A stretch of 64,000 nt of DNA from an uncultured Bacteroidales bacterium (GTDB lineage: Bacteria; Bacteroidota; Bacteroidia; Bacteroidales; UBA4417), in NCBI GenBank assembly GCA_903864265.1, contig CAIPFN010000157.1, positions 687 to 64,686 of the forward strand, written 5' to 3'. Made by a program: the position numbers and the translations under genes. The notes under the pieces were generated by a model. That model was not told where the DNA came from and ran no database searches. It saw only the letters and a program-made list of their open reading frames with translations. Below, piece by piece: positions 2,174 to 28,248 of the stretch; position 1 is the stretch's first letter; every line of letters begins with the position of its first letter.

Positions 2174-2323
2174 GTGTCAGGGCATTTCCGGTAAAACCCG
2201 CTATTCCGGTGTGCAAGGGTTCCCATTGTATATTTTATCAGAAAAAACCACATCCACGCTGAACAAAGCAGCTTTAAAATCCTTAATACTTGTTAACCGT
2301 TTAATGACACCCAAAATTAAATT

Positions 2324-3364
2324 ATGAAGAATACGATTTCCTTGCTTTTAGTGCTTCTAACCTTTACTGTTTCCGCCCAGGAAAAACACCTTAAAAACAT
2401 TAAGCAGCTTACCTTTGGAGGCGATAATGCCGAAGCCTATTTCAGTTTCGACGGTAAAAATGTTTCGTTTCAAGGTAACAATCCGACCTGGGGTTTGAAG
2501 TGCGATCAGATTTTTAACCTCAATATAGCCGAAGCCGCAGCCGACAGCACGTATCGCCCGCCTTTGATCAGCACGGGTTTTGGACGCACCACCTGCTCGT
2601 TCTTTCTTCCGGGGGATAAGCAGATTTTATATGCTTCGACTCATCTGGGCGGGAAAGATTGTCCTCCAAATCCCGAGCCCCGCAGTGATGGGAAGTACCT
2701 GTGGCCCGTATACCCTGATTTCGATATTTTTGTAGCCGACCTCAAAGGTAACATTGTCAAACAGTTCACGAATTCACCCGGTTACGATGCCGAAGCAACG
2801 GTTTCGCCCAGGGGCGACAAAATCGTGTTCACTTCCATGCGCAATGGCGACCTGGATCTTTATACCTGCAATATCGACGGCAGCAATGTAAAACAAGTAA
2901 CCCATATGCTGGGATACGACGGAGGTGCATTTTTCTCGCCCGACGGCAAAAAACTGGTTTTCCGCGCATCCCGCCCGCAGACACCCGAAGATATAAAGGA
3001 ATATAAGGACCTGCTTGCCCAAAACCTGGTTATGCCTACCAAAATGGAGATATTTGTTTGTAATGTCGACGGAAGCGATCTGCACCAGGTCACACACCTG
3101 GGAAAGGCCAACTGGGCACCGTATTTCCTGCCTTCCGGCAATAAAATTATATTTTCAAGTAATCATCAATCCACCAAGGGTTACGACTTTCAACTCTTCA
3201 TGATTAACGTGGATGGTACCGGGCTCGAACAGGTTACAGCCGAAAGTTATTTCAATGCTTTCCCCATGTTTTCACCCGACGGCAAAAAACTGATGTTTTC
3301 ATCAAACCGCAACAAACGAAACCCCCACGATATGAACCTGTTTATCGCCGACTGGGTAGATTAA
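2324..3364 (+). CDS. secreted PD40/TolB-like beta-propeller repeat protein
   Basis: ATG start followed by signal peptide MKNTISLLLVLLTFTVSAQ. PD40-type strands recur (VSPRGDKIVFTS, FSPDGKKLVFRAS, LPSGNKIIFSS, FSPDGKKLMFSS). Confidence 0.8.
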   Translation: MKNTISLLLVLLTFTVSAQEKHLKNIKQLTFGGDNAEAYFSFDGKNVSFQGNNPTWGLKCDQIFNLNIAEAAADSTYRPPLISTGFGRTTCSFFLPGDKQILYASTHLGGKDCPPNPEPRSDGKYLWPVYPDFDIFVADLKGNIVKQFTNSPGYDAEATVSPRGDKIVFTSMRNGDLDLYTCNIDGSNVKQVTHMLGYDGGAFFSPDGKKLVFRASRPQTPEDIKEYKDLLAQNLVMPTKMEIFVCNVDGSDLHQVTHLGKANWAPYFLPSGNKIIFSSNHQSTKGYDFQLFMINVDGTGLEQVTAESYFNAFPMFSPDGKKLMFSSNRNKRNPHDMNLFIADWVD

Positions 3365-3519
3365 ACTTTGGCGGAACAGTTTCTTTTATAGACTATCTTT
3401 TCTAATGAAAAAAAGATTGGTAAAGCAGGAAAAGCTTTGTCAACCTTTTTTTTGTAATGGGTATCATACTTGTCCTCTTTGCGGCTTATCCTTTTAGCCG
3501 TAAAGCCATTGCAAAAATG

Positions 3520-4038
3520 TTATTTGCTGATCTTCTTCAATGCGTCCAGGTAGATTTTGCGGATGCTGTTTTTTTCTTCCCTTTCGGCAATGGCCTTTAT
3601 GGCCGGCACCAGGTCAGTATTGAAAGGCAGGCGGAGCTTGACAATCTGCCCCAGGGCAAATGCTGCACTCCAGCGGACCACCGTGCCGGGATGTTCGGAA
3701 TTTTCCAGGAGGTTCTTCACTGCGCTTTCAAGTTTGTCAGGAAACAGGAAAGCTGTATTTCCTATAACCCTGGCTGACTCCCATTTTATACGTGCTGCTT
3801 TTTCGCTCAGGCTTTGGGTAATGAAATCAAATGTTACAGTATCGACAATTCCCGGGTGTTTTTGCGATGCAAACTCAATGGCTTCGATACAGCTGGCCTT
3901 GTCGGCTTCCCTTGCCAAAGCGGCATATTGAACCAGTTTGCCGATGCTGATGGTATTGCCGGAAAGCAGGCTGCTGATGGCTTCTGTTTTCTCTTTCGGC
4001 TTGCGCAGCTTGTCATTCAGAATTTCATTGATGTCCAT
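3520..4038 (-). CDS. small HEAT/ARM-like helical repeat protein, function unknown
   Basis: The ORF-track start at 4071 is a TTG. The ATG at 4038 (MDINEILNDKL..) is more plausible. The sequence is all-helical and Leu/Ala/Lys-rich with HEAT-like segments (..VRWSAAFALGQIV.., ..ARIKWESARVIGN..). No catalytic motif recognised. Confidence 0.55.
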   Translation of the reverse strand: MDINEILNDKLRKPKEKTEAISSLLSGNTISIGKLVQYAALAREADKASCIEAIEFASQKHPGIVDTVTFDFITQSLSEKAARIKWESARVIGNTAFLFPDKLESAVKNLLENSEHPGTVVRWSAAFALGQIVKLRLPFNTDLVPAIKAIAEREEKNSIRKIYLDALKKISK

Positions 4039-4631
4039 AAACCTAAGGTTAAGGGTGCGTTTGTACTGCAAAGATACTCTTTCGTATTAGCCCGACAGGT
4101 CCTGCTGCCTGATATTTTGGGTGGTCAAAAGTTTGCTTCCCCGGGCCGGGAACTGTATACCCGGCATGCGTTTTCCGGTTTATAAAGCAGGTGCGGCGTT
4201 TCCCTGCCCAGGCGCTGATAGAGCAAGGCTTCTCTTTTTGGTTTGTTTAAGGGTTTTTGTGATTCTGTTACTGCAGTATATGTTTTATTCCTGCGTGCTA
4301 TTCCTTATATTTTGTCCGGAAGCCGGAGCCCGGAAATCGTCGTCACTGAAAAAGGAATACCCCGAAGAAGCAGTGAAATACGGGTTTAAACGCAATGGAA
4401 CAGGACAGGTAAAAATTAAATCTGAAATTTGTGTTGATTCAGGAGGTCCGGGAAAATTATCAATTTTTCAACTACCTGTATCAGAGTGTAATAAGCTATG
4501 TGGGATCCGATGGTTGGAGGCATTTGGCATGAGAGTCGGAGGATATCAACTAAAGCGTGTTTATAAAAATAATTCAGGATATCCAAAAATAAGTTAAATA
4601 ATATTTGGGATTATCCTCATAGCGTATTATC

Positions 4632-4741
4632 TTTGTCACTTCCGCAGAGTTTCTCCAGAATTTATTTAGGAGGAATCCGGAACAAGTGACAACAAATTGA
4701 TCTATTATTTACTAAATTTGTAGATTCTGATTGTTGTCACT
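4632..4741. promoter_or_regulatory. three spaced copies of a TTGTCACT motif, including an 11-bp perfect inverted repeat that flanks a TAAATTTG box
   Basis: TTTGTCACT lies at 4632-4640. AGTGACAACAA at 4685-4695 is the exact reverse complement of TTGTTGTCACT at 4731-4741. The copies are ~50 bp apart. The 35-nt spacer between the inverted arms contains TAAATTTG (4713-4720), which matches the Bacteroidota -7 consensus TAnnTTTG. Confidence 0.35.
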
Positions 4742-5098
4742 GGAAAATGAGGGCCGGTTTTAATGCTAAAATCGGAACGCATCAGAAACACCTCAGGTAG
4801 CTTATTTTAAAATCCAGTTTTGTACGACTAGTTTTTCCTTGGTCTTCACGTATCGCTTATTTTCTTCAGATTTATTTTAATGCTTTTTGCTTAACGTTGT
4901 TTTTTTTTGTTGAATAAATGGGTGGTTCCTCAGGGAGTTCATTCATGAATGTCAGTTTTAGTTGTTGTTCTAAGTTTTGTGATCTCGTCAGGCTATTCTT
5001 TTTCTTGGTTATCTTTTATTGCGCTTTAGTTTAAAAAGTTCAGGTTTGTCTTTTGCTTCACTTCATGTAACATTTGTTTGTGTCAATTAAAACGAGGA

Positions 5099-5128
5099 TT
5101 GGTTTTTTTTGAAATCATTCTATTTTTG
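5099..5128 (+). promoter_or_regulatory. candidate Bacteroidota-type promoter for the giant ORF, with a T8 tract in the spacer
   Basis: TTG at 5099-5101 is followed 19 nt later by TATTTTTG (5121-5128 = TAnnTTTG). The spacer begins with a run of 8 T (5103-5110). The site is ~165 nt upstream of ATG 5292. Confidence 0.3.
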
Positions 5129-5291
5129 ACCAATCACGTTTCATTCTTTAAATTCCGGAACTCGCCATGCTCTTTTCCTAGTGTTACTATTATTAAAATG
5201 GTATTGAAAAACATTTTCCTTTCAGAGAATTTTAACCATAGATTTTCGGTTGTGGAAACCTACCCAAATAATAACTTAATACATCAGGATT

Positions 5292-8200
5292 ATGAAAAGA
5301 ATTTTACACTTTTCGACGACTTTGCTGTTTTTGTTTGCTTTTCTGAACAGCATTAATGCCCAGTATTGTACACCGACCTTTACCAACGGATGCGAAGGCG
5401 GCCAGGGAATCACTTCGTTCCAGTTTGGTACAATCAATCAGACGCCAATACCATGTACCGGAACGCCCAATTATTACCAGGATTTTACCAGCATAAGTAC
5501 CGACCTGGCAATGAACGGTATTTATGATATTGCAGTGCAGACTGCAAATAACGGAACGTATATTTCAGTCTGGATCGATTATAATTCCGACCAGACCTTT
5601 GATAACGGGAGTGAACTTGCATTGCAGTTTTTCTGCATGTATGCGGGCACAACTTCTACTTCGCTGACGATACCTTCTTCAGCTACCACAGGTTCCACCC
5701 GCCTCAGGATCGTGGCTTCCACATTCTCTTATCCAATCGATCCCTGCAGTGATCCGGGTCCTGGCAACTGCTCCGACTATTCGGTTAATATCATTGATCC
5801 GGTCAGCCCGCCCTCAGTCAATACACTGGCTGCGACAGGCATAACGGCTTTGAGTGCGGTACTGAATGGTACCATAAATGCCAATGATAATTTTACCCAT
5901 GCCGTATTCAATTATGGTACTGGCCTGAGCTATGGCATCAATGTAACGGGTAGCCCATGGATTTTAACCGGAAGCTCCAATATGGATGTAGCAGCCTCCA
6001 TTTCCGGACTCATCCCGAATACTACCTATCATTTCGAAACCGTAGGATATGGCTCGGGAGGTTACGTTTCGGGCGGAGATATGGAATTTACTACATTGTC
6101 AATTCCGCCCACGGTAAGCACCGAACCCGCTACCAATGTATCGGGCGTTTCAGCCATGCTAAACGGATTGGTTAATGCCAATAATCTGGCATCCGGTGTT
6201 ACGTTTGAATATGGATTGGACGATACCTATGGTACCACCGTGGATGGCAACCCCTCTACGCTATCAGGTTATACTCCGCAATTAGTCACATACTATTTAT
6301 CGGGGCTGGATATGAATACAACCTATCATTACCGGGTTGTCAGTTCAAATTCCGAAGGCGTTACTCCGGGTGCCGATATGACTTTCACCACCTTGCCCAC
6401 ACTCTATTGCATGCCGGTATTCTCAACCGGTTGTAATACCTATGAAATCGGTTTGACCTATTTTGAACTGAATACGATTTCCCAAACTATACCGTGCAGC
6501 GGAACGCCCAGCTATTACCATGATTATACATCCTTATCCACCGACCTGGCCATGAACGGCTATTACTCCATATCAGTTCAGGAGGGTGGGGTTTATGGTG
6601 CAAGCGTGACGGTATGGATTGATTTCAATCAAAACAATGTTTTCGATGGGCCAGCTGAAGTGGTTGGGAATGGCTATTGCGCCGGAAGTTCCTCTGCCGT
6701 AATTCAGATTGCAGTCCCGGCTTCAGTGCCAACAGGCGCTACCCGGCTGCGGATTATGGCATCCTATTTTGGTTATCCTGTCAATCCCTGCGGCACCTAC
6801 GACTATGGAAACTGTTCGGATTTCACGGTAAATATTACCGATCCGCTAACTCCTCCTTCGGTAAACACACTCGCAGCTACCGGGGTATCAGCTACTGAAG
6901 CTGTGCTGAACGGTACCGTTAATGCAAATGACTATGCCACCCAGGTTGAGTTTCACTATGGATTAGATTTAAGTTATGGGAACGTAATCCAGGGGATCCC
7001 GGGAACCATAACCGGTAATTCCAACACCGATGTAAGTGCTGCTTTAACTGGACTTATACCTAACGCGACTTACCATTTTGAAGCCGTAGGGTTTGGCCCG
7101 GGTGGTTATGTTTCGGGAGGCGATCTTATGTTTACAACGTTTGCCTTACTCCCTGACGCCACGACCGGGAGCGCAACGTATATTGCGGGCTCTTATGCCA
7201 CATTGAACGGAACCGTGAACGCGAATAATTCCTTAACAGATATATATTTCGAATATGGCCTGGACGATACCTACGGCACTACTGTCGCCGGGAATCCCTC
7301 CAGCTATTCCGGCTTTTCCATTCAAAACGTATCGGCACAAATTACCGGGCTGGAGCTGAACACCACCTATCACTACAGGATAGTAGGCTCTAATGCGGAA
7401 GGGACTTCCACAGGGGCAGATATGACGTTTACAACCTTGAATATACCTTATTGTATTCCTACCTATTCAACCGGTTGTGAAAGTTATAACATAGGGCTGA
7501 CCTATTTTGGGCTGAACACGATTTCTCAGGCCATTACCTGTGCGGGAACCCCAAGCTATTACCACGATTTTACGGCTTCTTCAACCGACCTTGCCAAAAA
7601 CGGGTACTATACCGTTTCGGTCACAGCAGGTTATGGATACCCTGCGTATCCTACCTCTCTAACCGTCTGGATTGACTACAATCATGACAATGTCTTTGAT
7701 CCGGCTACCGAAACCATAGGTAGTGTCAATTGTTACGGCATTGGTACTACCTATACTTTCCCGTTTACGGTTTCCGCATCAGCTTTAACCGGGCCGGCCG
7801 GGCTCAGGGCGATGACTTCCTATTCTGGGTATCCTACTGATCCATGTGGGTATAATAGTTATGGGAATTGCTCCGACTTCACCGTCAATATTCTTGATCC
7901 GGTCAATCCTCCATCCATAACCACCCTGGGAGCTACCGGAATATCCCCTGGTGGGGCTGTGCTTAACGGGGCTGCGAATGCGAATGATAATCTCACCCAG
8001 CTCGAGTTCCATTATGGTTTAGACACCGGTTATGGAAACATTGCTGCCGCGGTACCCTCAAGCGTGGCAGGAAACAGCAATACCGATGTGAGTGCTTCCA
8101 TTTCGGGATTAACCCCCAATACAACCTATAATTATGCATTGATCGGTTTCGGCGCAGGCGGTTATATCATAGGTGATAACATGGCTTTTACAACCAACGG

Positions 8201-11200
8201 CATCCCACCATCCGTGACTACCCTCAGCGCAACCAGTATTTCAGGCATTTCTGCCACACTTAACGGAACTGTGAATGCCAACAATTTACCGTCGACCGTT
8301 TCGTTCGAATATGGACTTACCGATTCGTATGGTTCAGCCATCGCCGGGAATCCTTCTGACGTTTCCGGATTTTATTCGCAGGCTATTACTTCTGCACTCA
8401 CCGGCCTGGCGTTGAATACCACCTATCATTACAGGATTAACAGCACCAATTCGGCAGGGACTTCCTATGGAAGTGACATGACTTTTTCGACACTGCCCAC
8501 TACATATTGCATTCCTGTGTACTCTACGGGTTGTAATAGCTATAACATAGGATTGACTTATTTTGGTCTCAACACGATTGCGCAGACTATTTCATGCGCC
8601 GGATCGCCAAATTATTATCACGATTTTACTTCTACCTCAACCGATCTGGCTAAAAACGGGTACTATTCTCTTTCTGTAACCGAGGGAGGCTATTCGGTGT
8701 ATTACAGAATATGGATCGATTATAATCACAACAATGTTTTTGATGTCGCAACCGAACAAATCGGACAAGGGTATTGCAGTGGCGGAACAACTTCCACAAT
8801 CTACTTTACCGTACCTTCAACCGTTCCCACCGGGGCCACCAGGATCAGAGTAATGTCCCGCTATTCTTATTACGGGTATCCTTCAGATCCTTGTTCACTT
8901 TCCGAAATTTATGGGAACTGTTCTGATTTCACCGTTAATATAATTGATCCTCTAGCTGCTCCATCAGTTACTACTCTGGCAGCTACAGGAATAACCACCT
9001 CGGGCGGTATTCTGAATGGTACAGTTAATGCCAATGGTATTTCCACCAGCGTTATTTTTCATTACGGAACTTCCCTGAGTTATGGGAATACTATTGCCGG
9101 TGTTCCCGGAACGCTTAGCGGAAACAGCAATACCGATGTAGCAGCCACCTTAACGGGATTATTGCCCAATACCACCTATAATTACGAAGTAGTTGGCTAT
9201 GGTGCCGGAGGCTATGTGTCAGGAGGGAATATGACTTTTACAACCGGAGCCATCCCGCCGACCGTAACCACCACTTATGCAACCAATGTTTCGGGCACTA
9301 CTGCTACCCTGATGGGGACCGTGAATGCGAATTATTTATCTTCAGATGTCACATTTGAGTATGGGCTAACCACCTCGTATGGCACAACTGTTTTGGGAAC
9401 TCCCACGCCGGTAACAGGAGGAAGCCCGGTCGGGGTATCCGGATTTGTTTCCGGTCTGGATCAGGGTGCCACCTATCATTACAGAACCGTCGGTACCAAC
9501 ACCAGTGGCGTGGCCACAGGCACTGATGCTACATTTACAACCCTTTCGCCGACTACTACACAAGCGGTTACTTCGGACATTCCTGTCGGAACCACGAATC
9601 AGCAGATTATAGGTATAGAGATACCTAACCTGAGCCCATCCAATTCTGTTACTGTAACATCCTTTACCTTTAATACCAACGGCTGTACCCAGGTTTCCGA
9701 TCTGTCGAGGGCCAGATTGTATTCAACCGGAACTTCCGGGGTATTCTCAACTGCACTTCAGTTTGGTTCCGACGTAACCAGTTTTGGTGCCCTGGGTTCC
9801 TCCTTTGTCATTACCGGGAGCAGAGCACTCTCCTCCGGCAACAATTATTTCTGGCTGACGTATGATATACCCTCCGGAGCCACGGCGGGAGATGTGGTTG
9901 ATGCGGAATGCACATCTGTTATGGCAGGCGGCAGTTCCTTGGAGCCGGCTATTACAGCGCCAGCCGGAACCCGGACGCTTACCAGCGTAAAATTCCTGAA
10001 TAGCCTTGCCGTCACCCAGGCATCAACGGCTGCTGTGCAGAAAAGCTCAACAGATAACGAGATTTTAATGCTGGATTTCAACGTGGGAGGGAGTACTGCA
10101 ACACTTCCGCTGAACAGTATTTTAGTTACCAACACCGGTTTCGACAGTGACATCGCCGCCGGCGGTGTGAAATTGTACCTTACCTCATCCCCTGTGTTTG
10201 CTACAACCAATCCACTCGGAACGGCGCAGAGTTTCGTTTCGGGAACCGCCACTTTCAGTGCATTGTCATTCGATTTGCCAACCGGTCACACCTATGTATG
10301 GATTACTTATGATATTGCCGCCGGGGCAATCGGTTATCATACCGTGGACGCTAAAATCACCCAAAATGCAATTGACGTTCAGGGATTGCTTTATCCTCCA
10401 ACCGAGCAGAACCCGGCAGGAAGCCGCTATGTTGCAGTCGCACCTCATGCGCTGCCTTTTACCGAAGATGCCTGGGCCACCATACCTCCAACGGACTGGA
10501 ATAAAATAGGTGGAAGTTGGTATAAATCAAGCACAAGTTATTCAGGGGGAACATCTCCGGAATTACGTCTTTCCTATAGTGGGGCTAACGCCGGGGATAA
10601 AATGATTACTCCCCCGCTAATAACCACCGGGTTGCCATACCTTGTACTTCGTTTTAAGTATTTCCTCGATGATTACGGCGTTGGTTGCACATTAAGAGTC
10701 CAGTCAAGCAGTAATGGCAGTACCTGGACTAATGAAGCATGGTCACGAGCTTCAGTCAATAATCAGAACTATGGGCCTTTTGATGTTGTAACAACCATAA
10801 GTTCAAACCTGAGCGGAGGTAATACCCAGGTGGCATTTGATGTAGAGGGAAACCCCTATTATATCGATAACTGGTATATTGATAATGTAAAGATATCAGC
10901 ACCAGAGCCTCCAACAGTCACTACCGCTGCAGTGACTTCCGTTACCCCCAATACGGCCGTATCAGGGGGAACTGTATTAGACGATGCAGCAAACGCAGTT
11001 ACGGCAAGAGGTATATGCTGGGGCACTTCCTTAAATCCTACCCTTTCCGACAATTTCACTACCGATGGGTCGGGACTCGGAACTTTCGTGAGTAACCTTA
11101 GCGGTCTCGTTCCGGGTAATACCTATCATGTGAGAGCTTATGCCACCAATGGAATCGGGACTGCATACGGGGCCGATCTTTCTTTTACCCCTGCTCCGCC

Positions 11201-14200
11201 GCCAACGGTTACCACTACTGCTGCTACCGGATTGACAGGTACGGAAGCTGTTTTGAATGGCATTATCAATGCAAACTTAGGCTCTGTCGCCGTTTCATTC
11301 GATTATGGTTTAACCGTTTCTTACGGCAGTTCCGTTGCGGGTGTTCCGACCACAGTAACCGGCAGTACAGATACCCCGGTAAGCGCAAACCTGAGCGGGC
11401 TGCAACCCAATACAACCTATCATTTCAGGGCAAAAGGCTTGCCGGCAGGAGGCGTCGCTGTTTATGGTGATGACTTTACCTTTACAACCCTTGCTATTCC
11501 CCCTACCGTTGCTACCCTGGCTGCAACCTATATTTCCGGAGTTTCTGCCGTATTAAACGGAACGGTGATTGCTAATAATGCAACATCTGCCGTTTCCTTT
11601 GAATATGGTTTGACAACTTCTTACGGTTCAACCATTGCGGGTGTTCCTCCGGGTATCACGGGGAATACAGTTCAATCCGCAGCAGTTACCGTACTGGGTC
11701 TTGCCATGAATACAACCTACCATTTCCGGATAGTCAGTACAAATGCCGGAGGTACTTCTTATGGAGATGATATGAGCTTTACAACTCTGATAACTCCATA
11801 TTGTATTCCCGCCTACACCACGGGATGTAATTCCTATAACATCGGGATAACCCATTTTGAGCTCAGCTCGATCAATCAGGCCGTCACCTGTACGGGGACG
11901 CCTAACTATTACCATGACTTTACGTCTTCTTCAGCCGATCTGTATCAAAACGGTGCCTATGTGATTTCGGTGACAGGAGGGTATTGGGATACCTACGTGA
12001 CGGTTTGGATTGATTATAATCAGAACAATGTATTTGACGGGGCATCTGAAGTGGCGGGACACGTTTATATGACAAATCCGGGAGCTACCTACACCATCCC
12101 CTTCACGGTATCAACAGCTTCTTCGACCGGGCCGACGCGCCTGAGGGCCATGAGCAATTATTACTGGCCTTCGTATAACTATCCTGCTGATCCATGCATA
12201 CTTACCGAAACCTATGGAAATTGCAGCGATTTTACTGTTAACATCCTCTCACCGCTCACCCCTCCGACTGTCACAACCAATGCAGCCTCCGGCATCACGG
12301 CGACTGAGTCGGTATTAAATTCCACCGTCAATGCAAACGGAAATCCTACCAATGCTGTTTTCAAATGGGGGTTAACCGCATCATACGGCAACAGTGTTAC
12401 CGGGGTTCCGGCTGTAGTTACAGGTACTACCGATACACCGGTAACGGCATCCCTGTCGGGGTTAACGCCCAATACAACCTATCATTTCCAGGCAGTAGCA
12501 TGGGGGATAGGAGGGACTGTAAACGGAAGTGACGTAACATTTGCAACCACTGCTATTCCGCCCACTGTTGTCACAGGTACAACTTCAAATATTCAGATGA
12601 CCATCGCAACGCTGAGTGGAACGGTTAATCCTAATAACCTGAGTTCAACTGTTTCTTTTGAGTATGGATTGACTACTGCTTATGGTTCCACTATTTCGGC
12701 TTCCCCTTCATCGCTGGCGGGCTATTCCGTACAGTCTGTTACCGGCTCCCTGACCGGACTCACTTTGAATACACTGTATCATTACAGGATTGTCAGCACC
12801 AACTCCGCAGGTACGTCAGTAGGCGATGATATGACTTTCACTTCGGCTCCGACACTTTATTGTATACCATACTTCTCAACCGGATGCAATACTTACAGCA
12901 TTGGATTAACTTACTTTGGTCTGAATACGATTTCCCAAACGATAAGTTGCAGCGGTTCGCCAAGTTATTACCATAATTATTACCCAACCTCAACGGACCT
13001 GAACAAAAACGGCAATTATTCCATCTCTATAGCCGAAGGAGGTGGTTATGGCATCGATGTAACAGTATGGATTGATTATAACCAGAATAATGTTTTTGAC
13101 GGAGGTGTTGAGCTTGTCGGTCAGGGACATTGTAGCGGGGGTAGCACTGCCACCATTCCCCTCACTGTGTATGCATCTGCTTTAACAGGTTCAACAGGGC
13201 TTAGGATTCTTGCCAATTACGACGGTGACGGTTATGTTTCAAATCCTTGCGGTTCATATTCATACGGGAATTGTGCTGATTTCATGGTCAACATCCTGCC
13301 TGCAGTTACCCCGCCATCGGTTACCACTAATGCAGCATCCAGCATAACGGCAGCAACTGCAGTTTTGAATGCCACAGTTAACGGAAACGGAAATGCCACC
13401 AATGTTATTTTCAACTATGGGTTAACAAGCTCGTATGGAAGTACGGTTGCAGGTTCCCCGAGCCCGGTAACAGGTAGCACCGATATTGCAGTCAGTGCTT
13501 CACTGACGGGATTGCTAGCGAATACTTTATATCATTATCAGGCGGTAGGTTCGGGAATAGGCGGAACTGTTTATGGTAGTGACGTGACATTTACCACTGC
13601 TATGATCCCACCTACGGTCACTACTACGGCTGCTTCCGCTATAGCTGGCGTTTCTGCCTATCTGAACGGAACTGTAGACCCCAATAATTTGCCGTCGTCC
13701 GTATCCTTTGAGTATGGACTGACAGCATCGTATGGGACAACTGTTGATGGAAATCCCATTAGTGTTTCCGGATCGGGTTCTCAGGCCGTATCAGCTTTTA
13801 TCACGGGGCTTACTATGAATACGTTATATCATTACAGGGTAATCAGCACAAATTCGGCTGGTACTTCTTTAGGGGATGATATGACGTTTACCACCCTTAC
13901 CACACTTTATTGTATTCCATCCTATCAATACGGTTGCAGCGATCCGTGGTATATGGGACTAACATCTGTTGATCTGAATACAATTTCTCAACCTATTCCC
14001 TGTACCGGAACACCGCCTTATTACCATGATTATACGTCCTCATCCACCGATCTGGCCCTGAACGGCTCTTATTCACTTATAGTTCATGCAGGAGGCGGTT
14101 ACGGAATCTATATTAATGCATGGATTGACCTTAATCACAACAATTATTTTGATGGTGCAGGCGAAATAGTCGCACAAGGCCACTGCAATGGAGGGTCTTC

Positions 14201-17200
14201 TTTAACTATGACCTTAACAGTCCCGGGAACTGCCCTCACAGGAGCTACCCGGATCAGGGTAATGTCTAATTATGATGGTTACGGCTATCCTTCTGATCCC
14301 TGCGGGTGGAATTATTTCGGGAACGCTGCTGATTTCTCAGTGAATATTATGTCCCCCGGACCGCCAATCGTATCCACCGGGGTAGCAACTGATCTAAATA
14401 TCAGCAGCGCTACCTTGAATGGTTTGGTGAATCCGAACTATTTTTCGAGCACAATTTCCTTCGATTATGGGTTGACGGCTTCTTATGGATCCTCAATTGC
14501 CGGCACTCCGTCACCTTTAAGCGGGGGTGTAAATACGGCAATAACAGCAGCACTGACAGGGCTTACGGCAAATACAACATATCATTTCCGCATCAGTAGT
14601 ACGAATTCGGCAGGTACTTCTTTAGGCGATGATGTGACATTTACAACCACTCCAACCCCTGTTTTCATCGTTTCAGGCGGCGGAACCTACTGCAGCAATG
14701 GCTCGGGATTAAGTGTGGGCCTTAGCGGTTCGGATGTGAATGCAACTTACCAGTTGTATAAAAATGCTGTTGCATTTGGCAGTACTGTATCAGGTACCGG
14801 AAATCCACTTTCGTGGGACAATTTGTCTGACGGAACTTACACCATACAGGCAATTACTTCGGCGGGAAATACATGGATGATCGGGAATGCGGTTATATCT
14901 TCATATAATAACCCGGTTTCGGTGTATATCTATGCATCCGCGTATACCATATGCCCGGGCACCTCGGTTACTTTCACGGCATACCAGTCCAACGGGGGGG
15001 CAACACCTGCATACCAGTGGGTAGTTAATAATGTGAATGTAGGTTCGGACTCGTATCAATATTCCTATATCCCTAATGGCGGGGATGAGGTTAAGTGCAT
15101 ATTAACTTCCAATATTGCCTGTCCCACCGGGAACCCGGCAACCTCCAATACGATTACAATAACTGTCTCCAGTCCTGTTCCCAGCATTTCCGGTTCGGAT
15201 GTAGCCTGTGCCGGTTCTTCGGGTAATTCCTATTCTACGGAGTTTGGCATGTCGAACTATGTATGGAATGTTTCAGCCGGAGGAACTATCACCTCAGGCG
15301 GGAACGGATATTATTATGTAACCGTTACCTGGAATACTACCGGAGCTCAGACAGTAAGTGTTAACTACACGAATGGCTATTCCTGTACAGCAGCAACCCC
15401 AACTGTTAAAAACGTTTCCGTAAATGTAATGCCTACTCCGACCATCTCCGGATCCGCCACGGTTTGTGCCGGCTCAACCGGTAATATTTATACCACGGAA
15501 TCGGGCATGAGCGGATATTCGTGGGCAGTATCAGGCGGAACTATCACTGCAGGTTCAGGAACCAGCCAGATAACAGTGACCTGGAATTCCTCCGGAGCAC
15601 AGACCGTAAGTGTGAACTACTCAAACGGATGTACTCCTGCTTCGCCAACAATTTATAATGTAACGGTGAATCCTATCTCAACTCCAACGATAACAGGTCC
15701 TGTTACGGCATGCGTTAATTCAAGCGGGAATGTTTACTCAACCGAGCCCGGAATGAGCAGCTACAACTGGTCCGTTTCGTCAGGAGGCACAATCACTGCC
15801 GGTGGAAGCTCAGCTGATAATACGGTTACCGTAACCTGGAATGCTTCGGGAAGCAGATCAGTGCATGTGAGCTACACTAATACTTTTAGTTGCGGCGTAT
15901 CTGCCCCAGGTGTACTTAATGTGACGGTAAATCCTTTACCGGTACCAACCATTACCGGTCCCACAGTTATTTGTGATATTCCATCAACAGTCAATACCTA
16001 TACTACCGAAGCGGGGATGACAGGATATACCTGGGCAGTTTCTGCCGGAGGTACAGTCACGGCTGGAGGAACTGCTGCAGATAATTCAATTACCATAACC
16101 TGGACAGCCTTAGGCGCACAAAGTGTGAGCATTACCTATACCAGTAGTAATGGTTGTACTCCTTCAGGTCCAATGGTGAAAACTGTGAATGTTTATGCTT
16201 TGCCAGTTCCTGCCATTACCGGACCAGCTACTGTTTGCGGTATCCCGTCAACGGGTAATTTATATTATACTGAAACCGGAATGACAGGATATTCCTGGAC
16301 GGTTTCTGCTGGCGGAACCATCACCTCCGGTTCCGGTCACTACATTTATGTCACCTGGAATACAGCCGGTGCGAAAACAGTTAGCGTTACCTATGCCGAT
16401 CATGGCTGCAATCCGGTAAGCCCGACTGTTAAGAATGTGGATGTTTACGACAGACCGGTTCCTGTAATTACCGGCCCTACTGCTATTTGTGGAACCCCAT
16501 CACCTGGAAATGTATATTCCACCGGAGCAGGCATGGCCAACTATGCCTGGACTGTCTCCGGGGGCGCAATCACTGCCGGATCAGGCACAAATTCCATAAC
16601 CGTGAACTGGACATCACCCGGAGCCAGAACTGTACGGGTTACAGTTACCGATGGCAACGGATGTACTTCAAACCAGGTTGTTTATAATGTTGATGTGTAT
16701 GCACTACCTATTCCGTTTATTACTGGCGATGCATCTATATGTGAACCTCCATCTGCTGGTCATGTATATGCAACACAATCAGGCATGACAGGATATGTAT
16801 GGACTGTTTCGGCTGGTGGTACGGTTACTGCCGGCGGAAATGCATCAGATAACTCCATTACTGTTACCTGGACGGCATTAGGTGCACAAAGTGTAAGCGT
16901 AACTTATGCCGACGTGAATAGTTGTGTGCCTGCAAGTCCGACCGTTAAGAGTGTAAATGTTTACAACCTGCCGGTTCCTACCATTACCGGTCCGGCACCT
17001 GTTTGTGGTATTCCTTCATCAGGGAATTTCTATCACACTGAAGCCGGCATGACGGGATATTCATGGGCTGTCTCTGCGGGTGGTACTATTACTTCCGGAG
17101 GTTCCGGTAACTATATCTATGTAACCTGGAATACAGCCGGGGCCCAAACCGTAAGTGTAACGTACGCCGATCATGGTTGTAATCCGGTAAGCCCGACTGT

Positions 17201-20200
17201 AAAGAATGTGGATGTTTTTGCGAAACCGCTTCCCACCATTACCGGTCCGGCAATTATTTGCGGAACTCCCTCACCCGGAAATGTATATGTTACCGAAGCA
17301 GGTTGGGTAAATTATTCCTGGATCGTTTCAGGCGGTACCATTACAGCCGGGTCAGGCACAAATTCCATCACAGTGAACTGGACATCACCCGGAGCACGAA
17401 GTGTAAGGGTTGCCGTTACTGATGGAAACGGATGTACTTCAGATCAGGCCGTTTATAATGTCGATGTTTATGCTTTGCCCGTTCCGGTTATTAATGGAGA
17501 CGCGTCCATCTGTGCGCCGCCTTCTGCAGGTCATGTATATACCACTCAAGCGGGTATGACAGGATATGCCTGGAATATTTCAGCAGGTGGTATCATCAAT
17601 AGCGGTCAAGGTACCAACACCATCGATGTTACCTGGAATACAGTAGGGAGTCAGACAGTTGATGTTACATACACTGACACGCATGGTTGCACAGCTGCTT
17701 CCCCATCAGTAAAGCATGTCTCAGTCGATCTGTATTTCCCGGTGAGTATCACAATTGCTGCATCTGCAAATCCTATATGTACAGGAAGCTATGTCACTTT
17801 CACAGCCACTCCTGTCAATGGCGGGTCATCGCCTGTATATCAATGGATCGTGAATGGAATTAATGAGGGCTGGAATAGTTCGACTTATTGGTACATTCCT
17901 GTAAACGGAGATGTCGTTAGCTGTGTTCTGAATTCGAGTGTACTCTGTGCAACCAATGATCCGGCCACATCCAACGCTATCACAATGATAGTAAATACCC
18001 ATCCCGATGTGCCTGTAAGTGGTGGCGATATAACTGTTTGCTCAACTACATTGCCTGCTTTGCTGTCAGCTACAGCACCGGCAGGTAGCACGGTTGACTG
18101 GTATCACTATGCCAGTGGCGGAGGTGTGTTGTTGTCGAATAGTTCTGTTTATTCCACTTCATCAGCAGGCAGTTATTATGCAGAATCCAGGGATTTAGTA
18201 ACCGGCTGTACGAGTACCAGCCGAACCTTGGTTAATTTAACCATTAATGCTGCCGTTCAATATTTCATTGATTTAGATGGTGACGGATATGGCAACCCGG
18301 AAGTTTCTGTTATGGCCTGTGCACAGCCTTCGGGATATGTAACCAACAGTCTGGATTGCAACGATAATAATGCGAACATCAATCCGGGTGCTCAATACCT
18401 GGCTTATACAGGAAATGTTGGATTTACAAATTCTATCGTTTCTCCAACTACCGGATCGCCATATACACTCTTCCACTTTGAAGCCGATTATTTTGATGCC
18501 AACAATGCATTGCCCGGGGCAGGTTATCCCAGGCTGATACTGGATTACGAAGGAAACGGAAGTTATACCGATGCCAACGACCGTACAGTCATCATGACAG
18601 CTGCGGATCCTACGGATCTTACCACTTCCAACGGGAAGCGTTATTTTGTGGAGGTGAATGGCCTGACATACGGGACCAACTGGAAAGCCCGGATTATTGT
18701 AAGCGACGGAGTTAATTGTACTACCACCTTTGGCCCGTTCGATTACCCGGATGTGCTGCACGAACCCAACCTCTACCTCTTTGCCAACGATCTCAGCTTC
18801 AGTGTTCCTCATCCTGATCCTGCTCAAAACATCACTGTTTCTGCCGTGGTGCATAATGAATCGGATTTTGATGCCCAGAACTTTGTGTGCCACCTGATTA
18901 ATCAGTGGGATACCCTGATCGTTTATCCTGATGTAACGGTGGCTAATCTGCCGGCTCATCAGAGTACAACCGTGCAGTGGAACATTACCACCCCGGCTGT
19001 TCCTGCCTGGTGCCCGATGCAGGTAAAAGTGGATTACACGAATGTGATCAATGAAAACAATGAACTGGATAACTCGGCTGTGCGTCCGTTTGTAAACGGG
19101 AATTACCAGATCGCGGGCCGTATTGTGGTTCAATCACAGGTTTCGCCAGCTGTTTCTTACTCAAATCAGTATTATTATCTGTCATTGAGTGGCAGAGCCT
19201 GGTATACTGACCTGGCCGTTCAGCTCACCGATTCCACTGTGGCAGGTGCAACTGTCGATTTCACCATACTTGAAACAGGAGCTACCTATACAGGTTACAC
19301 CAATTCGTGGGGATATTTTAATATTTATTTCCCTGCTCCGCTTCCTCCGGGAGTATATCATATCATGGCTTCAGTCACCGATTTCACCTTAACAGGCGAC
19401 TTCACCAATGAGTTCACTATTCTTCCGCCAATCATTCCTATAACCAAACCAAACCTGACATTGGCTTACTGTCATTCTGTGGATGTGCAGCCTGTGAATC
19501 CGACCTATGATCCGGCCAATCCTGCGGATGTTACCCTGCTGGCTCATGTTGTGAATAACGGGAATGCTACGGCAATAGGGCCTATAGAAGTGAGGTTTAC
19601 CTACTCGACAGGAGGGACCTGGCTGGCACAATACAATGGCGACCTTGCGGCCGGCCATTCAGTGAACATTTCAACAACGGCACCTGTTCCGCCTCCGACA
19701 GCCACCCAGCTTGTGGCCTATGTCGATCCGAATGATCTGGTCCCCGAATGGAACGAATCTGATTGGGATAACTCAAGCATCGATAATATGTGCTATGATT
19801 TTCAGCCTGTGGGTATCTGCGGCGGTAATTTCTGGGGGACACATTGTGTGAATACCTCAACCAGCATTTATGTGGGCGTGAATGTATACCATCTTTATGA
19901 TGCCAATCCGTTGGATGTGAAATTTGAAGTCAGCGGGCCGGGAATTTCCGGCTGGCAGAATCTGGGTACAGGAACCTTGAATAACTTAACCCGGAATTGC
20001 TATTGCCCTTATGTGGTTGGAATACCTGATCAGTTCACATTTGCCGAAGTGGGCGTTTATACCTTCCGTATGACGGTTGATCCGGATAACGTTTACCCTG
20101 AGTGCGACGAGGATAATAATGTGCTCATCGTTACGGTCAATTCCATTTCCTGTCTGCCTCCTGAAACCAAACCAAACCTTGCATTTTATGGTTGCTATGG

Positions 20201-23200
20201 TCTTCAGGTACGACCAATTAATCCTTTCTATCCAGGCACTGCTACCCTGGTTGCCAATATTATCAATAATGGGAATGCAGTTGCCGTGGGCCCTATCGAT
20301 GTTCAGTTTACCTATTCGGAAGGAACATTCACAGGAACATATAACGGTAATCTGAGCCCAGGTCAAACGGCAGCTGTTACCGTTACTGCGCCTCTTCCGG
20401 TTCCGGCAACAACCATACTTACCGCTTTTATTGATCCTGCAAATACAGTTGATGAATGGAGCGAAACCGATAATACTGCTTCAGATAATATGTGCTGGGA
20501 ATTCCAGCCTGTTCCTCACTGTGGAATCAACTTCTGGTCGCATACCTATATTGTGGGTCAGTCGGCTACCCTGGCCGTTGGATTAAATGTTCAGCATCTG
20601 TACGACGCCAATCCTGTGAGGGTTAAATTCGAAGTCAGCGGACCTGGAATAGTTGGAACACAGAATCTTGGTTTTGGTTCATTAAACAATGTTTCACGGA
20701 ATTGCTGGTGCCCATGGGTTGTGGTTTTGCCAATGCCATTCACTTTCTTCGAAGCCGGGGTGTATCATTTTACCATGACCGCGGATCCGGATAATGTGTA
20801 CGCCGAATGCGACGAATCGAACAATGTGATGGAAGTTGATGTATCGGTATTAGATGGCGCGGATATGCGCATACTTTCGCAGTTCATTAATCCTACTCCT
20901 TTAAATCCGGGTGTAAATGATTCGGTATCCCTGATTGTTACCTACGAAAACATCGGAAATTCCAATGTGAATGATGCTATGAAACTGAGAGTGAAAGTAG
21001 ATAATACTGTCCTGGATGACATCTATCCCGTATATGGCCTGGCTACCGGCGATCATGCATCGGTTGCCATTCCTACAAAATGGGCCAGCAGCCTCCCGGG
21101 GGCTCATGTTATCAGGGCCATTATCGATGCCGACAACCAGGTGCCCGAAATTAACGAAAGTAACAATGAGGCAACACGGGCTATCATCGTCGGAGAATGC
21201 GCCAACCTCTACTTCCAGCTCTTTGCTTCCTCCAATTCCAATCCGGCACAGGGAGGTAATATCTTTATTAATTCCAGGATCGGAAACAACGGAGACGTGA
21301 ATGCTACGGCGAATGTGAAATTCTACTACATTGGTGATGCGAATGACACCATTCCGATAGGGCAAACCCCAATTTCTGTTTTTGCCCATGACAGCACTAC
21401 TATTATCATGCCTTGGGTGGTGGCTGACAATACCACCACCATAATAGGCAAAATTGTAGATGTGAATGTGCAGGAGTTTAATCCCGACGATAATGTGGCT
21501 ACTGCCATCTTAGGCGGCTTTACCATTTCGCTGACCCCTGTCTCGGCCTGTAACAATGAAAATAACGGTACACTTACTGCCGAGGCCACAGGAGGATCCG
21601 CACCTTATCTCTATATCTGGAGTAACGGGTATATTGGTGCAACTCTCACTGCCGGACCCGGAACCTATTCCGTTACTGTCACTGACAATGTAGGTTTGAG
21701 TAAATCTGCTTCAGGTACTATCGGGGAATTTGCCCCTATTGTTCCTACTATTTCCGGTCCCGCCATCGCCTCAAGCGGCTCAACAGGCAATGTTTACACT
21801 ACCGAGTCAGGAATGCACGGATATGCCTGGGCTGTTTCTGCCGGTGGAACCATTACCGGAGGAGGCACCGCAACGGATCATAGCGTGGTTGTAACATGGA
21901 ATGGAGGCGGGGCACAAAATGTCAGCGTCAATTATTTGACACCTCACGGATGTACAGCCTTAGCTGCAACCAATTATGCCGTTACTGTGAATGAAATTCC
22001 TGTGCCGGCCATCTTTGGCCCCGACAGTGCCTGCGCCAGTTCGACAGGGAATACATATCTGACAGAAAACGGGATGCACGACTATTCCTGGACGGTATCT
22101 GCCGGTGGTGTTATAACTGCAGGGGGAACCGCAAGCAGCAATTTCGCGGTTGTAACATGGAATACCCCCGGGATTCAAACGGTAAGCGTTTCGTATACAA
22201 ACCCGGATGGATATACTGCGGCATCTCCGACCAATTATCCTGTTACGGTTCTTCCTCACCCTGTGCCCACTATTACAGGACCTGTTGAAGTTTGCGTAAA
22301 TTCAACCGGCAATGTTTATACTACCGAGGCAGGAATGTCAGGGTATGTATGGACGGTTTCAGCGGGTGGTACCATAACCGGCGGGGGCGTTCCTTCAGGG
22401 AACTCCATAACAGTAACCTGGCTTTCGGCCGGATCAAGAACTGTAAGTGTTTCCTATACGGATACATATGGCTGCGTTACCGCAACACCAACCATTAAAA
22501 ATGTTATGGTTGATCCGTTGCCGGCCGCCGTTGCAGGCAATAACCGGGGAATATGCCTTAACAGCAGTACTACTCTTGGTGCAGCTCCAGTCGCAGGAAG
22601 TACTTACAGCTGGACTTCGAACCCGGAGGGGTTCTCATCAAACCTTGCCAACCCGACGGTTTCTCCGCAGGTAAATACCATCTACACGGTAATCGAAACC
22701 AATACCAACACCGGCTGTGTTAATAGTCACAGTGTGCTGGTAAAGGTTAATGCCATTCCGGCAGCTGTTGCCGGAGCTCCAAGGGCAATTTGCAAATATA
22801 CCAGCACTACCATAGGGGCTCCACCGGTAGCAGGCAGTATCTATAGCTGGACTTCAGTCCCGGTTGGATTCTCATCCCCTCTGGCCAATCCAACAGTAAC
22901 GCCATTGGTGACAACTACCTATACCGTGCTGCAAACAGCCATAGCTACCGGATGTTCCAACAGCAACAGCGTTGTTGTAACCGTTATCCCGATACCTGTA
23001 CCTACCTTAACAGGACCGACTCCGGTATGTAATAAATCGACAGCTAACACTTACACAACCGAGCCTTCCATGAACAATTATGTGTGGACCATACCCGCCG
23101 GTGCAATAGTTACTGCAGGGGGCACGACCTCAGATAATTACGTTACTCTGACATGGAACAGTACAGGCCTCAGGACAATCAAGGTAAATTACAGCAATTC

Positions 23201-23891: not shown

Positions 23892-23964
23892 TGAAGTACC
23901 GGGATCCTGGTTGATCAGAGAAGAGAAAGACAAACAATTGCAGCAAATCCTTAAACTAAAAAAA

Positions 23965-27142: not shown

Positions 27143-28240
27143 ATGAAACAGGTATTGACATATGTAGGGTACTTCTTGTTTTTAGCCCTGGTAAGTTTCC
27201 TTATCTGGCGTTTTTCCTTTATGATCATATGGGTGTTGATTGCGGCCATTATTTCATTTGTAGGACATCCGCTGGTAAGGTTTTTCGACGGCATCCATAT
27301 TAAAAAATGGAGGATACCTCACTCCCTGAGTGCCGGCCTGGCCTTACTATGTATAATACTGCTGTTTTTTGTATTGCTGGCAGTTTTTGTGCCGCTCATT
27401 GTTAGCCAGGCTGAGACAATTTCGAAAATAGATGTGAACCGCCTGGCCCAGGACCTGCAGGGCCCTATGCATTGGCTCGACAAGCAATTGCATACCTTTG
27501 GAGTGATCCCAGCCGGGCAGACCTTGCAGGAATTCATCATCATCAAGGCCAAATCGGTTGTAAATCTCGGGAATGTAAGCGGAGCTTTAAACGACTTTTT
27601 CAGCGTGGCGGGGACCGTCTTTGTCGGCTTGTTTTCGGTGTTTTTTATCGCTTTCTTTTTTATGAAAGACGAAACCATGTTCGAAGAAACCCTCCTGCTC
27701 TTTGTTCCTGTTAAGCATCATGATGCTACCCGAAAGGTGATTGCCGATTCCAAAAACCTGCTGATGCGATATTTCATAGGCGTACTACTGGAAGTGCTGA
27801 GCGTGATGACAATCATCGCTCTGGGGCTTTGGATATTCGGAGTGGAAAATGCCCTGCTGATCGGGTTTTTTGGAGGAGTCATGAATATTATCCCTTACCT
27901 GGGTCCCATAATCGGGTCAACTATTGGCATTGCATTAGGGATAACGGCTACACTTGCTTCCGGTTCATATGCCGAACTTTTGCCAGTTCTGGCTAAACTG
28001 TGCGGGGTAATTTTTTCGGCCCATTTTATCGATAATAATATCCTTGTGCCTGTCATTTACTCGAAAAGCGTGAAAGCACACCCTCTCGAAATCTTTTTTG
28101 TAATTATCATGGGGGGCAGCCTTGCCGGTATTCCCGGAATGCTGGTGGCTATACCGGTATATACTGTGCTCAGGGTTATAGCGAAGGAATTCTTTCAGCA
28201 GTTCAGGGTAGTGCAGAAACTCACTGCTAAAATTGATTAA
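27143..28240 (+). CDS. AI-2E family (PerM/UPF0118) transporter
   Basis: 365-aa polytopic membrane protein. The C-terminal half has the family pattern (..LLMRYFIGVLLEVLSVMTII..LLIGFFGGVMNIIPYLGPIIGS..). Confidence 0.8.
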   Translation: MKQVLTYVGYFLFLALVSFLIWRFSFMIIWVLIAAIISFVGHPLVRFFDGIHIKKWRIPHSLSAGLALLCIILLFFVLLAVFVPLIVSQAETISKIDVNRLAQDLQGPMHWLDKQLHTFGVIPAGQTLQEFIIIKAKSVVNLGNVSGALNDFFSVAGTVFVGLFSVFFIAFFFMKDETMFEETLLLFVPVKHHDATRKVIADSKNLLMRYFIGVLLEVLSVMTIIALGLWIFGVENALLIGFFGGVMNIIPYLGPIIGSTIGIALGITATLASGSYAELLPVLAKLCGVIFSAHFIDNNILVPVIYSKSVKAHPLEIFFVIIMGGSLAGIPGMLVAIPVYTVLRVIAKEFFQQFRVVQKLTAKID

Positions 28241-28248
28241 GAAAAGGT

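Follow-up and report, generated by a model that had tools for sequence, protein, structure and literature searches.

A divergent, lineage-specific form of the GEVED domain repeated in a giant, probably surface-anchored protein of an uncultured Bacteroidales bacterium

The NR3 region of CshA, an adhesin of Streptococcus gordonii, served in 2023 to define the GEVED domain family (Barringer et al. 2023, PMC10952558). Its G-E-V-E-D motif lies near the C-terminal end in more than 88% of the family-defining sequences, the domain is counted among stalk domains, and in CshA-type adhesins it always follows the ligand-binding NR2 domain (PMC10952558). Here, we describe seven GEVED modules in a stretch of 64,000 nucleotides (nt), hereafter the window, from an uncultured Bacteroidales bacterium (assembly GCA_903864265.1, contig CAIPFN010000157.1, positions 687-64,686). 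All seven are carried by one uninterrupted open reading frame (ORF) of 6,180 amino acids (aa) on the + strand (5292-23834 of the window). Our literature search returned no experimental work on this protein or on any GEVED domain of Bacteroidota. Judged by their sequences, the modules are true but divergent GEVED domains. Aligned with the family motif, they have replaced both glutamates, the residue between these and the tyrosine, and have kept the glycine and the aspartate.

The assignment to the family, already proposed in a preliminary description made from the letters of the window, is borne out by profile searches. Pfam GEVED (PF20009) matches seven stretches of the protein (E = 6.6e-97), and when the genome was searched in six frames the copies scored 49.7-70.2 bits (gathering cut-off 24.4), each covering profile positions 1 or 2 to 78 of 78. 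The 78-position model spans only the C-terminal half of the conserved repeated unit, which is about 147 aa long and starts at "YC". We aligned the seven modules with 130 further full-length domains from 80 loci in other genomes, 137 domains altogether; residues are numbered after unit 2 throughout. Y1, C2, W71, D73, N75, C129, G135 and D139 are invariant in this alignment, and these family-wide columns, together with R116, are present in all seven units. GNC[SA]DF occupies the same columns as GE[TV]EDY, so the placement of G-N-C-S-D-F at the position of G-E-V-E-D, another early claim, also stands. None of the seven closing motifs reads G-E-V-E-D literally. That motif is descriptive and not a criterion of membership, and the modules are filed as divergent members because of their hidden Markov model scores, the invariant columns and their phylogeny. 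Like CshA NR3 and Pfam GEVED, they keep the W-I-D-x-N loop, the R116 strand, the cysteine before the last strand, G135 and D139, and they too sit in a secreted, repeat-rich, adhesin-like protein. They differ in the motif (Glu to Asn and to Ser or Ala, Val/Thr to Cys, Tyr to Phe) and in their extra cysteines. CshA is a sortase-anchored Gram-positive adhesin, whereas the host of the window modules is a Bacteroidota protein of the type IX secretion system (T9SS).

There are exactly seven copies of the opener YC.P....GC, at nt 5364, 6405, 7449, 8505, 11799, 12858 and 13908, precisely where the seven units had first been placed. Each is followed, some 134 residues on, by a closer of the form G...D[FY].VNI (nt 5763, 6807, 7863, 8913, 12216, 13266 and 14319), and only the G and the D of the GEVED motif are kept in these closers. 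The closer had been given as DPC...YGNCSDF.VNI, with GNCADF in unit 6 and GNAADF in unit 7. This is correct for those two units and for the four copies of GNCSDF in units 2-5, but unit 1 reads GNCSDY, and the DPC...YG part is loose: units 2 and 6 read NPC, unit 1 reads PG and the spacing is 5-6 residues. The modules of about 147 aa are 45-49% identical to unit 1 and share 41 invariant columns.

Between the modules lie FN3-like domains of about 100 aa that resemble one another, and their FN3-type identity is supported by matches to fn3, Pur_ac_phosph_N and PhoD_N above the whole-protein cut-offs. There are 16 of them: units 1-6 are each followed by two and unit 7 by one, and three more precede unit 5. 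The seven supermodules of about 350 aa, each one GEVED and two FN3-like domains, are thus real for units 1-6 (347-353 aa), but the seventh is shorter (249 aa, 13908-14654) and has a single FN3-like domain. No cysteine was seen in the FN3-like domains of unit 1, the unit whose translation was scanned. The array is laid out as 4 + 3 copies around an unrelated block of 2.2 kb (9549-11798), in which a BNR_assoc_N-type module scores 55 bits and the stretch 10254-10991 (about 246 aa) has no Pfam match. The three FN3-like domains ahead of unit 5 lie at 10905-11792, and the first of them (10905-11198) is more divergent. Whole cassettes are 44-61% identical to one another in protein and 63-68% in DNA, and the duplications are therefore old. 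An assembly artefact or a recent amplification is excluded by this DNA identity between cassettes, together with the position-specific orthologues described below.

The modules had been said to have lost the acidic motif. Both glutamates are indeed gone, but the invariant aspartate remains, and such departures are frequent in the family: both motif positions are acidic in only 522 of 931 sampled domains, and closers read GETEDY, GEVEDY, GQAEDY, GE[AV]RDY, GETHDY, GQTADY or GN[FY]VDF. We examined the residues with which the motif covaries by mean-field direct coupling analysis (DCA). The window protein and the 150 best database matches contributed 1,040 domain instances, to which the locus domains were added; 932 rows passed the gap filter (Meff 861), giving 10,011 residue pairs. 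The pair C10-C31 ranked 7th, 118-137 9th, 39-136 10th and 27-138 14th, followed by D73-R116 (25th), R116-D139 (33rd) and D73-D139 (38th). C2-C129 ranked 58th despite the invariance of both columns.

Each of the motif columns 136, 137 and 138 changes together with a partner elsewhere in the domain. At 27/138, the canonical N27/E138 is found in 501 domains and the charge-swapped D27/R138 in 83, and the variant has Q27 with Ser or Ala at 138. E136 occurs with Ser, Thr or Gly at 39, and N136 with H39. T137 occurs with R118, and C137 with Met or Leu at 118; where variant domains have Ala or Ser at 137, Arg is back at 118. Since the motif columns covary with residues 39, 118 and 27, the eponymous glutamates are best read as parts of a replaceable inter-strand polar network, not as an indispensable site, and this lineage as having re-wired that network. 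We propose that the GEVED strand may be zipped onto neighbouring strands by three side-chain pairs that would be exchanged as sets. In the variant, E136 with S/T/G39 has given way to N136 with H39, E138 with N27 to S/A138 with Q27, and T/V137 with R118 to C137 with M/L118. The core of W71, D73, N75, R116, G135, D139 and the C2-C129 pair is untouched, and the motif residue Asp139 would be placed in an invariant D73-R116-D139 cluster adjoining W71 and the C2-C129 bond. The three pairs appear to have been swapped as sets at least twice, in the E..R/D27 type and in the N-C-S type. The GN-C-S-DF signature is thus most plausibly a lineage-specific, compensated re-wiring, and neither a loss of function nor a new stabilising principle. 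The 83 charge-swapped cases form a clean covariation of their own, D27 with R138, in a large GE[AV]RDY subgroup (P0004, P0028, P0033, P0052, P0060, P0101 and others). A Ca2+ site at the two glutamates is made less likely by the D27/R138 swap, which favours direct side-chain pairing at 138, although canonical domains may still have a metal site.

The cysteines bear on whether the motif change brought a new means of stabilisation. C2 and C129 are universal in the family. Among the seven units, four of the six cysteine columns are invariant (C2, C10, C31 and C129), whereas C92 is gone in unit 5 and C137 in unit 7, so that the early statement of cysteines conserved throughout holds for those four columns. 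C10 and C31 come and go together across the 137 domains (69 with both, 65 with neither, 3 mixed), and a second disulfide between them is well supported for the window modules. The same pair is also found in about one fifth to one third of canonical domains, and this predicted bond is not special to the variant. The modules can accordingly be called disulfide-stabilised on account of C10-C31, which co-occurrence and the 7th DCA rank support, but not as a feature of the variant and not on account of a C137-C92 pairing.

That pairing nevertheless deserves weighing, for a C92-C137 disulfide could have replaced a stabilising role of the acidic residues (a lost Ca2+ site, for example) and would give three disulfides per module. 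C92 is present in 78% and C137 in 90% of variant domains, both are nearly absent from canonical ones, and the cysteine count is exactly six in 46 of 96 variant domains. Weak DCA couplings also link the 88-103 hairpin with residues 131-136. However, the two cysteines are close to independent within the clade (58 domains with both, 15 and 14 with one, 9 with neither; Fisher p = 0.10), 42 of the 96 domains have an odd cysteine count, and the pair ranks 4,671st of 10,011 in the DCA, at background level amid diffuse couplings around residue 92. Because of this weak association, the odd counts and the background coupling, C137 as a new stabilising disulfide is unsupported. Furthermore, C137 covaries instead with residue 118 (Met/Leu with Cys, Arg with Ala/Ser), domains that have lost C137 retain C92 (the QHCRAG type, for example), one of the two cysteines is missing from each of window units 5 and 7, and the D27/R138 charge swap points to direct pairing of side chains at E138 and not to a metal site. 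We consider the replacement disulfide unlikely. The pattern of C137 is closer to that of a small hydrophobic residue packing against position 118. We infer that the motif cysteine has no special role, and the disulfide chemistry proposed for the modules is likewise deduced from their sequences. The DCA couplings gave no firm strand order.

Another possibility is that the re-wired face is chemically active. Cys-Gln thioesters occur in Gram-positive adhesins, and Q27, H39, N136 and C137 could form one site per module, be it a metal site, a redox-sensitive thiol or a Cys-Gln thioester. With M118 included, the face would then be a new functional site, seven per fibre tip, serving as an adhesion-tuning thiol or metal or in covalent ligand capture, and the change would exceed a neutral compensated replacement. 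Q27 (74/96), H39 (77/96) and C137 (70/96) did become conserved together in the clade, and many modules have an unpaired cysteine. The couplings run the other way: C137 is coupled to the hydrophobic M/L118 and not to Q27 or H39, and Q27 is coupled to position 138 and not to 137. Moreover, C137 is replaced by Ala or Ser in several family members, with R118 restored, and neither Pfam nor Foldseek showed similarity to thioester, isopeptide or cupredoxin domains. We regard such an active site, and equally the new function it would bring, as very improbable. Cross-links of the thioester, isopeptide or ester kind, and likewise a cupredoxin-like Cys/His/Met site, were rejected as the main reading, since C137 couples to 118, M118 is conserved in only 49 of 96 variant domains and no such family was matched.

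A structural model is in line with an all-beta domain. The AlphaFold2 model of unit 2, built with the 137-sequence alignment, has a mean predicted local distance difference test (pLDDT) score of 96.8 and a predicted template modelling (pTM) score of 0.91. Foldseek against the PDB gave one specific match, the endo-beta-N-acetylglucosaminidase Endo-HS (9x1i_A; TMq 0.63, E = 2.6e-06); the other matches are generic immunoglobulin (Ig)-like or beta-sandwich folds with TMq of at most 0.54. The profile of the 137 domains found the same protein among PDB sequences (9x1i_A residues 728-877, hmmsearch E = 2.5e-07), whereas the narrower seven-unit profile found nothing meaningful there. No CshA NR3/GEVED structure turned up in the PDB in these sequence profile searches, and the domain of 9x1i_A appears to be the only solved structure of the GEVED-type family; it could serve as a template for it. 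At about residues 728-877, Endo-HS keeps W-x-D-x-N, the R-L-R strand and the G and D of the motif, and both glutamates are absent from it as well, its closer being GFAIDF. It differs in occurring singly, as an accessory domain in a glycoside hydrolase; its identity is 19%, it has long insertions, and no conserved cysteine is visible within the aligned stretch. A literature search for the Endo-HS structure paper gave nothing usable. For the whole 348-aa cassette 2, the AlphaFold2 model (pLDDT 94.5, pTM 0.80) has linkers of 5-6 residues, and its best PDB matches are tandem FN3/Ig ectodomains, with E down to 4e-12. The pTM suggests that the cassette would be a fairly stiff unit of three beads.

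We then asked how the variant is distributed. When the motif columns were left out of the 137-domain tree, all 52 variant domains of the GN..D[FY] type formed one clade with a local support of 99, a value from FastTree that is local only and drawn from few columns. The sister of this clade is a YC.P...GT...GETEDY group from metagenome-assembled genomes (MAGs) of Chitinophagales, Bacteroidia and the like. By this topology, the variant domains are nested within the GEVED family and have a single origin. Unit 1 clusters with the units that come first in orthologous proteins, and the neighbour of unit 3 is one specific unit of another MAG, at 76% identity; the array is therefore older than the split of these species. 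Of 44 further genomes of the genus, searched whole, 6 have variant arrays, with 3-9 copies each. Their open frames reach 5,954-9,173 aa where the contig permits, the rest lying on short contigs, and one is laid out 4 + 3 as in the window, others 4 + 4 or six in a row. Orthologous giant ORFs with these three layouts are G153:C421 (8,933 aa, 4 + 3), G136:C15 (9,173 aa, 4 + 4) and G137:C18 (5,954 aa, six in a row), which shows that species differ in copy number and in the interrupting block. In 120 genomes from the order's other families, no match exceeds about 107 bits. All variant loci are in MAGs of Bacteroidales/Bacteroidota, and isolate names (Loclat, LacPavin, ELA and others), from which we read the habitat of the hosts, point to lake and freshwater surveys. 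On these sequence grounds, the variant is a taxonomically narrow, monophyletic sub-lineage.

The genome that holds the window also encodes canonical GEVEDY domains. On contig C52 (about nt 709-6657), a T9SS protein of 1,983 aa carries both subtypes: an N-terminal variant domain, YCLPEYTLGC...GNAGDFMVNL, with five cysteines, and an internal canonical one, YCTASAS...GEVEDYTVNL, with two. As both occur within one genome and one protein, the change is a trait of the domain sub-lineage and not of the organism's composition.

GEVED had been described as a domain that usually occurs once, near the C-terminus, and its amplification as a cassette had been called an unusual use of the fold. Neither view survived the database search for proteins with more than two GEVED-like domains, by which the preliminary description had proposed to check itself. 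A profile search of 1.84 billion representative proteins gave 14,706 matches at E ≤ 1e-3 (944 at E ≤ 1e-30), and the best 150 of the 14,706 carry 2-33 GEVED domains each. Multi-copy cassettes are common among them, with regular periods of about 150 aa (GEVED in tandem), about 235-260 aa (one further domain), about 300-330 aa, about 350-385 aa (two further domains) and about 455 aa (three). Arrays read from the sequences include [GEVED + FN3-like] eight times (P0010, with GETEDY) and ten times (P0008) and [GEVED + PKD] 13 times; P0004 has 14 copies at a period of about 370 aa, and P0003 and P0012 have a period of about 455 aa. These proteins, from Bacteroidota and other phyla, resemble the window protein in their regular arrays of GEVED with one to three Ig-like, FN3 or carbohydrate-binding module-type domains and in being giant and secreted; they differ in their acidic or E..R-type closers and mostly have 2-4 cysteines. 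The GN..DF type is found in 13 of the best 150 representatives, four of them with a cassette of 348-354 aa, and the combination of the 348-354-aa period of GEVED plus two FN3-like domains with GN..DF closers is confined, among the best 150, to the lake Bacteroidales group (P0002, P0009, P0017 and P0024). Four GN..DF-type representatives are already named "GEVED domain-containing protein" by the NCBI pipeline.

The features of the host protein are listed in Table 1. The signal peptide, judged by eye from the translation without a predictor, ends in FLNSINA, and the first GEVED module follows directly from QYC. The usual Bacteroidota signal-peptidase pattern places the cleavage before Gln, which would then be the mature N-terminus. 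At the other end, a T9SS sorting domain (PF18962, 30.3-31.1 bits, cut-off 27; TIGR04183, 26.8 bits, cut-off 23) stops two residues short of the stop codon, at the extreme C-terminus. The genome encodes the SprA translocon (TIGR04189, 2,560 bits) and has 97 sorting-domain matches (90 over the cut-off), a very large T9SS cargo repertoire for a 3.6-Mb MAG. Given the signal peptide, the sorting domain, SprA and the 97 cargo-type matches, T9SS export and surface display are the obvious reading.

Table 1. Features of the 6,180-aa protein, in window coordinates.
Feature	Position	Strand	Basis
Giant T9SS-secreted multi-domain surface protein (predicted), single 6,180-aa ORF	5292..23834	+	ORF and domain scans
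Signal peptide, MKRILHFSTTLLFLFAFLNSINA followed by Q	5292..5360	+	Read by eye from translation
GEVED module 1, closer GNCSDY, 6 Cys, 64.6 bits	5364..5804	+	Motif, alignment, Pfam
FN3-like pair, cassette 1	5805..6398	+	Self-trained profile
GEVED module 2, GNCSDF, 70.2 bits, model pLDDT 96.8	6405..6848	+	Motif, alignment, Pfam, AlphaFold2
FN3-like pair, cassette 2; whole-cassette model pLDDT 94.5, pTM 0.80	6849..7445	+	Profile, AlphaFold2
GEVED module 3, GNCSDF	7449..7904	+	Motif, alignment, Pfam
FN3-like pair, cassette 3	7905..8498	+	Self-trained profile
GEVED module 4, GNCSDF	8505..8954	+	Motif, alignment, Pfam
FN3-like pair, cassette 4	8955..9548	+	Self-trained profile
Array-interrupting block: BNR_assoc_N-type module, ~246 aa without Pfam match, three FN3-like domains	9549..11798	+	Pfam, profile
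GEVED module 5, GNCSDF, without C92, 5 Cys	11799..12257	+	Motif, alignment, Pfam
FN3-like pair, cassette 5	12258..12851	+	Self-trained profile
GEVED module 6, GNCADF	12858..13307	+	Motif, alignment, Pfam
FN3-like pair, cassette 6	13308..13904	+	Self-trained profile
GEVED module 7, GNAADF, without motif Cys, 5 Cys	13908..14360	+	Motif, alignment, Pfam
Single FN3-like domain after module 7	14358..14654	+	Pfam, self-trained profile
Cell-proximal part (predicted): PKD_6 array (15 stretches), Ig_7, four CARDB stretches, SprB repeat, further PKD_6	14655..23594	+	Pfam
T9SS type A C-terminal sorting domain (Por_Secre_tail / TIGR04183)	23595..23825	+	Pfam, NCBIfam

The protein is probably anchored at the outer surface through its C-terminal sorting domain, and with such an anchor the N-terminal GEVED/FN3 region would be the end farthest from the cell. 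The protein may thus be pictured as a very long, C-terminally anchored surface fibre, with PKD-like, CARDB and SprB-type repeats in the proximal two thirds and the GEVED/FN3 cassette array as the distal third. Of the stalk repeats, anchor and adhesive tip that make up a fibrillar adhesin, the first two are found in it, as the GEVED/FN3, PKD_6 and CARDB arrays and the sorting domain. T9SS type A cargo adhesins with SprB, PKD and CARDB arrays are alike in their signal peptide, giant size, Ig-like repeats, terminal Por_Secre_tail and SprA in the genome; the window protein differs from the gliding adhesins among them in carrying no evidence of a gliding role. To our knowledge, neither SprB nor RemA has been described as carrying an N-terminal array of GEVED/FN3 cassettes. 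We infer a stalk or adhesin role of the cassettes, which most plausibly act as semi-rigid spacer or presentation units of an adhesin-like fibre, possibly with a binding role of their own.

A stronger form of that last idea makes the GEVED modules lectin-like, ligand-binding units of a multivalent adhesin, the re-wired face shifting specificity toward a target in the lake. In a protein anchored by its C-terminus the modules would lie at the end away from the cell, where seven-fold repetition would give avidity, and in CshA-type adhesins GEVED stands near the tip beside a binding domain (PMC10952558). The changed residues are also lineage-specific, and their hosts are all lake MAGs of Bacteroidales/Bacteroidota. 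However, the even positions 142 and 144 of the last strand couple with hydrophobic core residues in the DCA, so that 136 and 138 may face inward; the Foldseek matches apart from 9x1i are generic beta-sandwiches; and GEVED is counted with stalk domains (PMC10952558). We see this ligand-binding role as possible but doubtful.

Taken together, we give a probability of roughly 0.75 to the picture of a T9SS surface fibre with old GEVED/FN3 cassettes as extension units and a compensated re-wiring of their motif. Several points speak against it. The GEVED domain has no experimentally defined function (PMC10952558), and the genome is a MAG of 64% completeness. The DCA sample is biased, consisting of the best matches of a variant-derived profile with many internal repeats, and the proposed contact network derives wholly from covariation.

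A few further features of the locus were recorded. Within the protein, a MopE-type putative metal-binding motif matches weakly at the start of the CARDB-rich region (18249-18971; E = 0.003, below cut-off), and a partial Lysyl_oxidase-like match lies at about 20655-20846. Beyond TIGR04183, the NCBIfam scan gave a partial match to an M4 peptidase C-terminal extension, far below the cut-off and uninformative. Directly downstream, an ORF of 912 aa with GLUG motifs (23911-26649; E = 5e-18) may be a second surface protein of the same transcription unit. Further on, at 27143-29253, lies a gene for an AI-2E family transporter, with a radical SAM/SPASM gene (334 aa) directly after it.

The striking repeat of the window protein is therefore normal GEVED usage: fixed-cassette arrays are widespread in giant secreted proteins and are already recognised by annotation pipelines. 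What is known is the domain family and its architecture; what is new is a divergent sub-lineage and the covariation map of the GEVED motif. This map offers a testable picture of the residues that give the family its name and a starting point for stability and binding experiments.

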